A DNA stretch of 64,000 nt. It comes from an uncultured bacterium (GTDB taxonomy: Bacteria; Chlamydiota; Chlamydiia; Chlamydiales; JACRBE01). Positions 39,041 through 41,269 of this stretch are shown here, one piece after another. The stretch's first letter is position 1, and each line of letters opens with the position of its first letter. The stretch is taken from contig CAYSAJ010000005.1 of the NCBI GenBank assembly GCA_964429005.1, positions 5,354 to 69,353 of the forward strand. Reading direction: 5' to 3'. A program made the translations under genes and the position numbers. The notes beneath the pieces were generated by a model, which was not told where the DNA came from, ran no database searches, and saw nothing but the letters and a program-made list of their open reading frames with translations.

Positions 39041-39098
39041 ACTTTCCTCTATTAAGATTTATTATGTTTATTAATTAGTTAATATCTTCCTACAATCA

Positions 39099-39127
39099 AT
39101 TATATAATAAACCGATTAATTTTTCAA
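39099..39127 (-). promoter_or_regulatory. Sigma70-like promoter for 38525..39040 (and 36914..38470)
   Basis: The sense strand reads TTGAAA - 17 nt - TATAAT. The conserved leader TAGGAAGATATT follows at 39081-39092. Confidence 0.6.
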
Positions 39128-39194
39128 GATATTTTTATTATTATATAATTAAACGAGATATTGATTATAAAGGGTTTATGAATAAATAAATTCG

Positions 39195-39229
39195 AAAAGA
39201 AAAAAGCCTCTTATTTTCATAAGAGGCTT
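39195..39229 (-). terminator. Rho-independent terminator of 39248..40162
   Basis: The sense strand reads AAGCCTCTTAT-GAAA-ATAAGAGGCTT followed by TTTTTCTTTT, about 19 nt after the stop. Confidence 0.8.
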
Positions 39230-39247
39230 TGGATTAGTTGTTTATGA

Positions 39248-40162
39248 TTATGTAGAAGAGATGTTCTGGTTGATCTGCTGTAAACCAGTGATAATATCGC
39301 TTAAGGTGTCTTGAACCGATTGCGTAATCTTCTGGTAGTTCTGCTGCTGGTACTGGAGCTGGTTATTCGCATAGCTTGACGCAGAGCTCACCTGGCTTGT
39401 CGCTTCAGAAAAGTCGTTAACAAATTCCTGAGCTTCAGCTGGGTTAGCAGGCTCAAAACCTTGTGGGGGACCCCCGCTTGGGTTCGGCAAGAATGGAGGG
39501 TTATACTGTGTCGGCTGACCATTTACATAGTAAGTTGTACTTCCCGTAAGGTTATAATAAGCCGCGCCAAACGCTTTTTGGTCTGTTAACTGACCAAGTC
39601 CTGTTCCTGAACCAAAAATAGCTGGTGTTCCTAATTCACTAAGTAAAGAGTCAAGGGCAGAACCTGTTGATTCACCATTTTTACCTCTTTCTCCTAAAAT
39701 ACCTTCAAAGTTGAATTGGTAAGAAAGACCACCACCGCTCATTGTAGCAGATTGTGAATCAAGCCAAGGGTCTGTTCCAATTCCCAACTGTTGGCTAAGA
39801 GTGTTATACGATTTACAAAACTCTGTATAGTTACCAGACTGAAGGTGTTCTTGCATTGTAGAAACAAGGTTCGTAATCGTAGATAAGTCTTGGATCGCAT
39901 AAGCTTGCTCAGACATAGAGTCTTGGCCGAGGTTCATTTTGTCATTAAACAAGTGAAGCATCGCAAAGTTAAGAGCTTCTGAAAGAGTAGCTTCTTTAGC
40001 CATACCTGTTTCAGAATTGGCCTTGTTAATCAAACCATCGATTTGGGACATGTCACTTAAAAAGGCTACCATGTCCTTATAAAAGTCAGCATACCAAGTC
40101 TGATAGTTTTCTTGAGATTGTACCCAAGGCTTATCTGAATCTTGTGTTTTGTTTAATTCCAT
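39248..40162 (-). CDS. Gly-rich, Q-rich hypothetical protein (304 aa), paralogue A; candidate T3S substrate (tip/filament- or harpin-like)
   Basis: It has a helical W/F/Y-rich N-terminus, a glycine-rich centre and a conserved Q-rich C-terminal helix (FVNDFSEATSQVSSASSYANNQLQYQQQNYQKITQSVQDTLSDI). It contains a single Cys. It is a paralogue of 40348..41199. Confidence 0.65.
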   Translation of the reverse strand: MELNKTQDSDKPWVQSQENYQTWYADFYKDMVAFLSDMSQIDGLINKANSETGMAKEATLSEALNFAMLHLFNDKMNLGQDSMSEQAYAIQDLSTITNLVSTMQEHLQSGNYTEFCKSYNTLSQQLGIGTDPWLDSQSATMSGGGLSYQFNFEGILGERGKNGESTGSALDSLLSELGTPAIFGSGTGLGQLTDQKAFGAAYYNLTGSTTYYVNGQPTQYNPPFLPNPSGGPPQGFEPANPAEAQEFVNDFSEATSQVSSASSYANNQLQYQQQNYQKITQSVQDTLSDIITGLQQINQNISST

Positions 40163-40203
40163 AATATTGATTAAACCTATTAATTTAATATCTTCCTATA
40201 TTA

Positions 40204-40232
40204 ATTATATAATAAATATTTTAAAATTGCAA
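40204..40232 (-). promoter_or_regulatory. Sigma70-like promoter for 39248..40162
   Basis: The sense strand reads TTGCAA (40227-40232) - 17 nt - TATAAT (40204-40209). The conserved leader TAGGAAGATATT lies at 40187-40198. Confidence 0.65.
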
Positions 40233-40298
40233 TAACAAATAGCTCGATCTAATCTTAATAGATTAGTTTTAAGAGGCTTAAGTATTTGAATATAATAA

Positions 40299-40330
40299 AC
40301 AAGCCTCTTAAATCTCTTTAAGAGGCTTGT
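40299..40330 (-). terminator. Rho-independent terminator of 40348..41199
   Basis: The sense strand reads ACAAGCCTCTTAAA-GAGA-TTTAAGAGGCTTGT followed by TTTATTATATT. It shares the AAGAGGCTT core with the terminator at 39195-39229. Confidence 0.7.
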
Positions 40331-40347
40331 AATTAAAGACTTAGATA

Positions 40348-41199
40348 TTAGGCAGAAGCCATGTTTTGGTTGATCTGCTGAATCTGATTTTGCTCGTCGC
40401 TAAGCGTATCCTGCACAGCCTGAGTCATTTTTTGATAGTTTTGCTGATCAAACTGAAGCTGGTTATTCGCAAAGCTCGACGCAGAGCTCACCTGGCTTGT
40501 CGCCTGAGAGAAGTCGTTAACATACTCTTGGGCAAGGCTAGGGTTTGCGGGCTGCGGCCCTGGGCTAGTTCCACCACTCGGCGCTGGTATGGGAGGAGGA
40601 GTCCAACCTGAAGGCTTGTTTCCAGTCAGGTTATAGTAAGTATCATCAAAGGTTTCTTCATTGGTCAAGGCGCCAAGACCTGTTTGGCTTCCTGGATCTC
40701 CCACCTCAGCGATAAGAGAATTCAAGGCAGAACCTGCTGTTCCAGCGTCTCCTAATAGACCTTCAAAGTTGAACGGAACACCATCAATTGTCGTATTATG
40801 GGCTTGAAGCCATGGGTCCGTACCTGGTGTACTATCAGTACCAATATATTTTGTAAGAGCATTATAGTCTGTTAGATAGCTACTATAATCCCCATTTTGG
40901 AGGTCTTCTTGAACCTTAGAAATCATATCAGTAATGTTAGAGAGGTCTTGGATCGCATACGCCTGCTCAGACATCTGGTCTTCGCCAAGCTGCATTTTAT
41001 CGGGGAATAGCACAGACATAGCGAACATAATAATAGCACCTGGGTCATCACCCGCCTTGATCATCCCTTCCATTTGGTTGAAAGAGTTTTCAAAAGTAGT
41101 TACGTCATATGAGAATTGCTGATACCACTTATCCCAAGTTGTAGAATCTGGAGTTGGGTTGGGCACGCCTTGACCTTTATGGACATTGTTGTCTGACAT
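40348..41199 (-). CDS. Gly/Q-rich hypothetical protein (283 aa from ATG 41199), paralogue B
   Basis: Shared blocks with paralogue A are MSEQAYAIQDLS and YVNDFSQATSQVSSASSFANNQLQFDQQNYQKMTQAVQDTLSD. The promoter and leader lie inside the listed 5' extension, so the start is set at MSDNNVHKG. Confidence 0.65.
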   Translation of the reverse strand: MSDNNVHKGQGVPNPTPDSTTWDKWYQQFSYDVTTFENSFNQMEGMIKAGDDPGAIIMFAMSVLFPDKMQLGEDQMSEQAYAIQDLSNITDMISKVQEDLQNGDYSSYLTDYNALTKYIGTDSTPGTDPWLQAHNTTIDGVPFNFEGLLGDAGTAGSALNSLIAEVGDPGSQTGLGALTNEETFDDTYYNLTGNKPSGWTPPPIPAPSGGTSPGPQPANPSLAQEYVNDFSQATSQVSSASSFANNQLQFDQQNYQKMTQAVQDTLSDEQNQIQQINQNMASA

Positions 41200-41240
41200 T
41201 TTATTACCTTTTATTATTAAATAATATCTTCCTATAGATA

Positions 41241-41269
41241 ATTTTATAACATATTGATTTAAATTACAA
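41241..41269 (-). promoter_or_regulatory. Sigma70-like promoter for 40348..41199
   Basis: The sense strand reads TTGTAA (41264-41269) - 17 nt - TAAAAT (41241-41246). The conserved leader TAGGAAGATATT lies at 41223-41234. Confidence 0.6.

Follow-up and report, generated by a model that had tools for sequence, protein, structure and literature searches.

A short sequence box at the predicted transcription start is shared by four neighbouring promoters of a putative type III secretion (T3S) tip and translocator gene cluster in a 64-kb stretch of DNA from an uncultured member of the Chlamydiota (contig CAYSAJ010000005.1; the whole stretch is referred to below as the window). This box is very probably a functional cis-element of some kind. 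The promoters, named P_C, P_B, P_A and P_D after the genes that they precede, all lie on the minus strand. An earlier note on the same DNA had described TTGNAA-17-TAWAAT core promoters before the genes starting at 39040, 40162 and 41199 (A, B and C), together with an identical 12-mer, TAGGAAGATATT, located 5-6 nt after each -10 element. Our scans of the window bore out both observations, with the following coordinates:

41241-41269, minus strand: core promoter of P_C, with the -35 element TTGTAA (41269-41264), a 17-nt spacer and the -10 element TAAAAT (41246-41241)
41222-41236, minus strand: start-site box of P_C, TATAGGAAGATATTA, including the 12-mer at 41223-41234
40204-40232, minus strand: core promoter of P_B, TTGCAA-17-TATAAT
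40186-40200, minus strand: start-site box of P_B, TATAGGAAGATATTA, with the 12-mer at 40187-40198
39099-39127, minus strand: core promoter of P_A, TTGAAA-17-TATAAT, matching 11 of 12 consensus positions
39077-39094, minus strand: start-site box of P_A, the 18-mer TGTAGGAAGATATTAACT, the same as upstream of the A orthologue in the related locus L135, with the 12-mer at 39081-39092
36729-36758, minus strand: core promoter of P_D, TTGCAA-18-TAAAAT, with a TG at the extended -10 position
36711-36725, minus strand: start-site box of P_D, the variant TGTAGGAAACTATAA, identical at 12 of 15 positions to the box of P_A, P_B and P_C

The three exact copies of TAGGAAGATATT, all on the minus strand, begin 6, 5 and 6 nt past the -10 elements of P_A, P_B and P_C, respectively, and there is no further zero-mismatch copy anywhere else in the window. 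When up to two mismatches are allowed, the number of matches in the window (17 against 11.1 expected) is at chance level. A fourth site had been proposed before gene D, which starts at 36668, and the variant TGTAGGAAACTAT is indeed found there, the box of P_D being placed 3 nt past its -10 element; the 17-nt spacer did not hold for this promoter, whose spacer measures 18 nt. All four promoters fit the sigma-70 consensus at 9-11 of 12 positions, with spacers of 17, 17, 17 and 18 nt, and the combined pattern TTGNNN-16..18-TANNNT-3..8-AGGAA has four matches in the window, all of them at P_A, P_B, P_C and P_D. The three exact copies end 40, 24 and 23 nt before the ATG and the D variant ends 43 nt before it, so that the motif is too distant to serve as a working Shine-Dalgarno sequence, as already suspected, and its distance from the start codon is also variable. 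Terminator-like hairpins close each unit (40330-40299, 39230-39203, 36890-36852 and 35652-35622), which, together with the individual promoters, resolves the cluster into four separate transcription units: C, B, A-E and D.

Conservation of the box in related loci

Homologues of the B/C family led us to syntenic loci of three other organisms: L134 (Logan SRR28370467), L135 and L136 (Logan ERR14822387 and ERR14789958) and L137 (NCBI GCA_016213235.1). A short contig, L001 (GCA_964418965.1), was recovered as well. The conserved gene order runs from a divergent scc4-like/cdsD pair through two small genes, the B family, A-like, E-like and D-like genes and a gene of 524-715 amino acids to clpX-clpP-tig. 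The orthologues share 34-54% (A), 26-33% (D), 34-38% (E), 50-54% (trigger factor) and 79-86% (ClpX) identity with the window proteins. In L134, L135 and L137, the arrangement TTGNNN-17/18-TAWAAT-N2-4-TRTRGG was found before every orthologous unit that has its own promoter. These six promoters read, from the -10 element onwards:

L135 P_A: TAAAAT-AATA-TGTAGGAAGATATTAACT
L135 P_D: TAAAAT-AAG-TGTAGGGAAATACTAATA
L134 P_B: TAAAAT-TATT-TATGGGAGATTATAATTT
L134 P_D: TATAAT-AAT-TATGGGTAATTATAACTT
L137 P_B: TAAAAT-AATT-TATGAGAGATTATATCTT
L137 P_D: TATAAT-AAAA-AAGGCGAATTATAACTT

When the intergenic regions that carry P_A in the window and in L135 are compared, the longest exact match is the 18-nt box TGTAGGAAGATATTAACT itself, whereas 500 shuffles gave a mean of 8.9 nt and a maximum of 15 nt. 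Across the 147 kb of the window and the loci together, the pattern TTGNNN-16..18-TAWAAT-2..4-TRTR[GA]G has nine matches, all at these promoters, against 0.18 expected, and none of 200 shuffles reached nine. Since neutral intergenic DNA should be randomised at this distance and the box is kept, these sequence comparisons indicate that the box is under purifying selection and was not only carried along by the B/C duplication. The proposal of the earlier note that the shared sequence is a selected cis-element is thus upheld: it precedes non-homologous genes and is retained at orthologous promoters of distant relatives. The possibility, raised in the same place, that the motif is merely baggage of a gene duplication found little support in the comparison, as A and D are unrelated to B/C and the relatives retain the box.

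The most explicit form of that possibility holds that the box is functionless and was copied with a promoter cassette during tandem duplications, without having decayed since. It can point to the fact that B and C are tandem paralogues whose 3' ends and terminators are still alignable, and to the lack of a separate promoter for the B-like gene in the closest relatives, from which P_B and P_C would probably be recent and possibly copies of P_A. We nevertheless consider it very improbable, because B and C are only 51% identical, which indicates an old duplication with promoter flanks that have been randomised, because A and D are unrelated genes, and because orthologous P_A and P_D promoters retain the box despite protein identities of 29-56%, values that also exclude a recent transfer of the same DNA to L134, L135 and L137. 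When the flanks of the A, B, C and D boxes were compared with composition-matched shuffles, every p value downstream of the box was above 0.05; upstream, the values ranged from 0.006 to 0.43, with only the B-D pair (0.006) clearly below 0.05, and what is shared there are the -35 and -10 features only. As to the origin of the promoters, P_B and P_C were probably acquired after a rearrangement that inserted two plus-strand genes before C, perhaps by copying of P_A. The terminator hairpins after B (39203-39230) and C (40299-40330) are themselves paralogous (AAGCCTCTTA...TAAGAGGCTT), and the B/C duplication unit thus took in the 3' end and the terminator.

To describe the box, we aligned the ten promoters (four from the window and six from the relatives) without gaps, anchored on the GG. 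The consensus has two parts, TRTRGG and TATWA, separated by four variable, mostly purine positions (TRTRGG-N4-TATWA). The first part is made up of T (9/10), R (10/10), T (9/10), R (10/10), G (9/10) and G (10/10), followed by a, R, R and n; the second consists of T (10/10), A (9/10), T (8/10), w and A (9/10), after which come n, y and T (9/10). Differences between orthologues are mostly A/G exchanges. The GG begins 7-9 nt past the last base of the -10 element, and the predicted +1 is the purine before it, 7-8 nt past the -10, which would give transcripts starting with 5'-RGGARR. At about +8 to +13, the ten promoters carry a -10-like hexamer, TATWAN, which reads TATAAT in L134 P_B, TATTAT in P_C and TATAAC or TATAAG in the P_D promoters. 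Gene-specific flavours of the box are preserved between species, with GAGATTATA or AAGATATTA at promoters of the P_A/P_B type and AATTATAAC or AAACTATAA at those of the P_D type. P_D promoters always combine an 18-nt spacer with a TG extended -10, the latter being conserved in four of four species.

Mode of action of the box

The distance between the box and the -10 element is fixed within one nucleotide, whereas that between the box and the ATG varies from 23 to more than 50 nt. Genes located inside a transcription unit lack the box: the B-like genes of L001 and L135 begin 20 and 64 nt past the small genes and have neither a promoter nor a box, in L134 and L137, 44 and 30 nt separate B from the A-like gene, which is boxless, and E is boxless in every locus. 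The box thus occurs solely at the beginnings of transcription units and belongs to the promoter or to the transcript 5' end, not to the individual cistron. That internal cistrons are boxless speaks against an mRNA-borne secretion signal and against translational operators for single genes. Among the strong promoters of these loci that carry no box, in any species in which they are covered, are those of the 524-715-amino-acid gene, the cdsD operon and the small-gene operon. Within the roughly 150 kb covered, the box thus does not reflect a general preference for start sites in these organisms.

Our preferred reading, which we put forward tentatively, is that the box acts at the DNA level as an operator for a shared regulator. 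Located at the predicted start of the sigma-70/sigma-66-type promoters that head the tip-like and translocator units C, B, A-E and D, it would be bound over +1 by a trans-acting factor, which would keep the whole set under one temporal or secretion-linked switch. What the sequence comparisons show is the architecture, its specificity, its conservation in four genomes and its tie to promoters rather than cistrons; the start position, the action on DNA, the existence and sign of the regulator, and the secreted nature of A-D are what we infer here. The T-R-T just upstream of the predicted +1 is conserved (9/10, 10/10 and 9/10) and would not be transcribed, which points to recognition of DNA, and we also counted the fixed register with the -10 element for an action on DNA. 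A precedent that we counted in the same direction comes from Chlamydia trachomatis, where Euo represses the late genes copB, copD, scc2 and tarP and has a binding peak that overlaps the core promoter (PMC10653925).

Several points weigh against this operator reading. The start position is a prediction, and initiation only 2 nt further upstream would put nearly the whole box into the transcript. The box lacks palindromic symmetry and is not a clear repeat either, and its half-sites, TRTRG and TATWA, are at best 10 bp apart. It has no match to the Euo, HrcA (CIRCE) or PhoB consensus, and no candidate regulator has been identified. In about 79 kb of genome (the window plus flanks of about 15 kb, L130 and L132), no box was found beyond the 5-kb cluster. 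In addition, T(-1), R(+1) and G(+2) are also the start preference of RNA polymerase itself, so that a separate factor may be superfluous.

The Euo comparison was made with the Waddlia consensus TTAAAAACAAATTTT, which has TTT minimal boxes (PMC4989314). Allowing up to three mismatches, it has 20 matches in the window against 14.7 expected, none of them on the box; the nearest, at 41336-41350, lies about 70 nt upstream of the -35 element of P_C.

A different possibility, to our mind rather unlikely, is that the box acts as RNA. It would then form the extreme 5' end of the mRNA (5'-RGGARRNUAUWA...), where a protein, a small RNA or the 30S subunit would bind it and set the stability or translation of the whole transcript. 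Its anchoring to the 5' end rather than to the ATG fits this idea, as do its purine-rich, Shine-Dalgarno-like character (AGGAAG, GGGAGA; AGGAAGATATTATG is an ordinary ribosome-binding site in unrelated metagenome contigs), the predominance of A/G variation between orthologues, and leaders that are predicted to be unstructured and would leave the 5' end accessible. Against it stand the conserved T-R-T upstream of the predicted +1 and the absence of the box from internal cistrons. The GGA is lost in three of the ten promoters (GAGAGA, GGGTAA and GGCGAA), which speaks against a CsrA-type site, and complementarity to the anti-Shine-Dalgarno sequence is weak in several orthologues. The leaders contain no stable or conserved hairpin (z-scores of -0.1 to +1.2) and no Rfam 15 match, only two tRNAs reaching the gathering score in the window; over 35400-41600, a search at E values up to 5 returned nothing above noise. 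A tblastn search with the Escherichia coli and Bacillus subtilis CsrA, Hfq and FliW proteins found none of them in the window, which makes up only a small part of the genome.

The box could also be an intrinsic signal read by RNA polymerase, combining an optimised start (T-1, R+1, G+2), an all-purine initial transcribed sequence and the -10-like TATWAN, and setting start choice, sensitivity to ATP/GTP, promoter escape or sigma-dependent promoter-proximal pausing; we regard this as unlikely. In its favour, the GG (9/10 and 10/10 in the alignment) is counted as invariant at +2/+3 with a T before the start purine, and E. coli RNA polymerase prefers Y-1/R+1 and contacts G+2 through the core recognition element. 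Furthermore, counted from the GG, T at +6 is present in ten of ten promoters and A at +7 in nine of ten, which forms the -10-like hexamer, and all ten promoters are near-consensus. On the other side, other strong promoters of the same loci lack the box in four genomes, and most of the -10-like hexamers are without the T at the sixth position that is needed by sigma region 2. A perfect identity of 18 nt across 46% protein divergence also exceeds what start-site optimisation would require. A bolder reading is that the box is the address tag of a feedback circuit new to the Chlamydiota, in which a dedicated factor reads the start region, as DNA or as 5'-terminal RNA, of every tip/translocator unit. 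We consider this reading speculative and unlikely. If it were true, candidates for the factor would include T3S chaperones, secreted substrates and the two conserved small basic proteins encoded just upstream, and translocator synthesis would be coupled to secretion or host contact, as in the MxiE-IpgC, YopD-LcrH and FliW-CsrA systems of other phyla.

Other interpretations were tried and rejected. A mini-ORF (open reading frame) using the box as its Shine-Dalgarno sequence has no ATG, GTG or TTG at a workable distance; the only candidate is an AUU 2-4 nt past the purines, for which the D variant has no equivalent. If GATATT served as the -10 element of a second, overlapping promoter, a -35-like hexamer would be expected 16-18 nt upstream, and none is present there. 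The GG-N10-GC spacing of a sigma-54 promoter is unmet and the GC is not conserved, and neither a Fur box, CIRCE, the PhoB motif nor the Euo consensus matches. A T7/SP6-like start (TATAGGGAGA versus TATAGGAAGA) has practically nothing to recommend it as the promoter of a phage-type polymerase, given a near-consensus sigma-70 promoter at the right distance and no conservation of the -17 to -5 equivalent. As a seed partner for a small RNA, the box has no complementary copies outside the sites, with near-matches at chance level. Searches for further members were also made in other genomes. Scanning genome contigs with AATATCTTCCTAN{5,6}ATTWTA gave chance matches only among the 120 stretches listed, from which the source genome was absent, and the single chlamydial match among those listed (L117, a Simkaniaceae metagenome-assembled genome) falls inside an ORF. 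A metagenome scan with the B/C protein profile found no relatives, and one with a stricter DNA pattern gave seven unrelated matches in which AGGAAGATATTATG is a plain ribosome-binding site.

The gene cluster and its surroundings

The genes served by the four promoters and the hairpins that separate them are as follows:

40348-41199, minus strand: gene C, 283 amino acids, a paralogue of B (51% identity) in a rare orphan family
40299-40330, minus strand: terminator-like hairpin after C, intrinsic type
39248-40162, minus strand: gene B, 304 amino acids, B/C family
39203-39230, minus strand: terminator-like hairpin after B, intrinsic type
38525-39040, minus strand: gene A, 171 amino acids, opening the A-E operon
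36914-38470, minus strand: gene E, 518 amino acids, SseC/CopB-type major translocator
36852-36890, minus strand: terminator-like hairpin after E, intrinsic type
35676-36668, minus strand: gene D, 330 amino acids, orphan

Gene E begins 53 nt past A and has neither a promoter nor a box of its own. Its product matches PF04888 with 35.4 bits (gathering cut-off 30.2; E value 1.1e-08), the L134 orthologue scoring 25.1 bits, under the same cut-off, and a homologue search with this translocator returned only E itself. None of the products of A, B, C and D could be assigned to a family in Pfam or NCBIfam. The B/C family is represented by three proteins in a database of 5.8 billion and by five clusters with E values below 1e-30 among 1.84 billion representatives. 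Gene A shows no sequence relation to B/C or D, and D is likewise unrelated to B/C. When four orthologues of A were combined into a profile, this gave a weak match to the C-terminal helix of the Salmonella needle-tip protein SipD (E values of 0.0045-0.017). An AlphaFold2 model of B, of low confidence with a predicted local distance difference test (pLDDT) score of 64, consists of helical hairpins and a long C-terminal helix; its top Foldseek matches in the PDB are SipD and IpaD, at a non-significant level (E value 0.28, template modelling score 0.37), and flagellar hook-filament junction proteins are also among its best, non-significant matches. The B-family profile has no sequence match in the PDB, and an AlphaFold2 model of A alone (pLDDT 59) was too poor for use. 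From the model for B and the profile match for A, the products of A, B and C may be regarded as weakly tip-like T3S system proteins. D is a candidate minor translocator by analogy of position, which is downstream of the major translocator as in other T3S loci, and the A-E-D order recalls espA-espD-espB of the LEE4 operon. Hence, the description of these genes as putative T3S substrates in the earlier note is firm for E, as a member of the SseC family, and plausible for A, B, C and D. In the case of gene C, a TTG-initiated ORF (40348-41286) would overlap the motif; the start is almost certainly the ATG at 41199, giving the 283-amino-acid product found in databases (P0002).

Beside the cluster lie genes for a CesT-like chaperone, a T3S system ATPase and a YscO-like protein, as well as cdsD, with the CdsD-specific Pfam domains PF22598, PF23863 and PF23862. 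The divergent scc4-like/cdsD promoter (TTGAAA-17-CATAAG; 43312-43340, plus strand) has no start-site box and sits in the most conserved intergenic block shared by the window, L001, L135 and L137; the Scc4-like protein is encoded at 43372-43782. Always between the scc4-like/cdsD operon and the tip/translocator genes is the pair of small genes (in the window 42768-43199 and 42324-42743, both minus strand; 564-1433 in L001, 4354-5219 in L135 and 5570-6448 in L137). Their products, of about 140 amino acids, are helical, K/E-rich and similar to each other, with basic C-terminal tails ending in KW.KS, and fall into none of the families of Pfam or NCBIfam; a role as chaperones or regulators of the module is possible. 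A possible fifth box at the promoter of the first small gene, small1 (TAGGGGATAAT, about 43225-43240, minus strand), was discarded because L001 and L135 do not share it.

An insertion hot spot lies between the two small genes and the B family; in the window, it is occupied by two opposite-strand genes (41494-41928 and 41953-42318, both plus strand). They encode similar small proteins with an LG..GGRIG motif followed by a hydrophobic stretch, candidates for membrane or Inc-like proteins. The corresponding interval in L137 (6491-9648) contains three paralogues of about 250 amino acids, each with its own promoter (TGTAATAT-AAAGCA-TRTAGC), and a 60-amino-acid HTH_38 fragment; in L001 and L135 it contains nothing. 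Downstream of D lies the proline-rich gene of 524-715 amino acids (33377-35524 in the window, with its promoter at 35555-35583, minus strand), an orphan whose product has long Pro/Ala/Gly-rich stretches and whose orthologues are 29-33% identical. Its extended -10 promoter (TGnTATAAT) is found in four of four genomes and is never boxed, and the gene seems to be regulated separately. A tRNA gene is located at 29958-30029 of the window. Close to it, at about 30154, the 204,746-bp Logan contig with this locus should end, as calculated from the coordinates of L130; the window runs on past that point and therefore stems from another assembly.

Known systems and significance of the box

The closest parallels in the Chlamydiota are the Euo-repressed sigma-66 promoters (copB, copD, scc2, tarP and omcAB), which likewise include translocator promoters, with a factor over the core promoter and joint temporal control (PMC10653925). 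Euo sites are AT-rich with poly-A tracts, whereas the box described here is built on GG and leaves the Euo consensus unmatched. The MxiE box of Shigella and the InvF-SicA sites of Salmonella and ExsA sites of Pseudomonas, which are of the AraC type, resemble it in that a short common box marks promoters of secreted substrates and links them to a single regulator. These boxes are activating and lie upstream of or across the -35 element; ours is at +1 of near-consensus promoters, where repressor sites or initiation signals are typically located. A purine-rich, GGA- or Shine-Dalgarno-like leader element far from the start codon is also a feature of CsrA-FliW on hag, CesT-CsrA in enteropathogenic E. 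coli, YopD-LcrH and the Bacillus STAB-SD, on mRNAs that encode secreted structural proteins. Unlike in these cases, the GGA of our box is not conserved, there is no hairpin and no fixed-distance second site, and internal cistrons are boxless. Pause elements of the lambda PR' type share a -10-like hexamer in the initially transcribed region with our promoters, but few of the ten have the critical T at position 6 of that hexamer.

A comparative-genomics survey of chlamydial regulation reports no such motif (PMC4652624), and the 12-mer was not found in a relevant context in our literature search. We therefore consider the box to be a new, undescribed cis-element of a familiar kind. Gene regulation in the Chlamydiota has been little mapped. 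Apart from CIRCE, the loosely defined AT-rich Euo sites and the promoters read by sigma-28 and sigma-54, few cis-elements have, to our knowledge, been defined in this phylum, and we know of nothing that specifically links chlamydial translocator and tip genes. In other T3S systems, tip and translocator genes share one operon (lcrGVH-yopBD, ipaBCDA, sipBCDA and espADB); as the set is split here into up to four units with a common box, co-regulation is the simplest reason for this arrangement.

As to scope, the locus family is rare, with about five protein clusters, and the organisms are uncultured. Within it, the cluster offers a natural example of a gene set that is a single operon elsewhere and would be kept coordinated after being split into separate units. 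Being present on every tip/translocator transcription unit of one lineage, the box would provide a bait for finding the regulator, as well as a search pattern for co-regulated T3S substrates and effectors in uncultured genomes.

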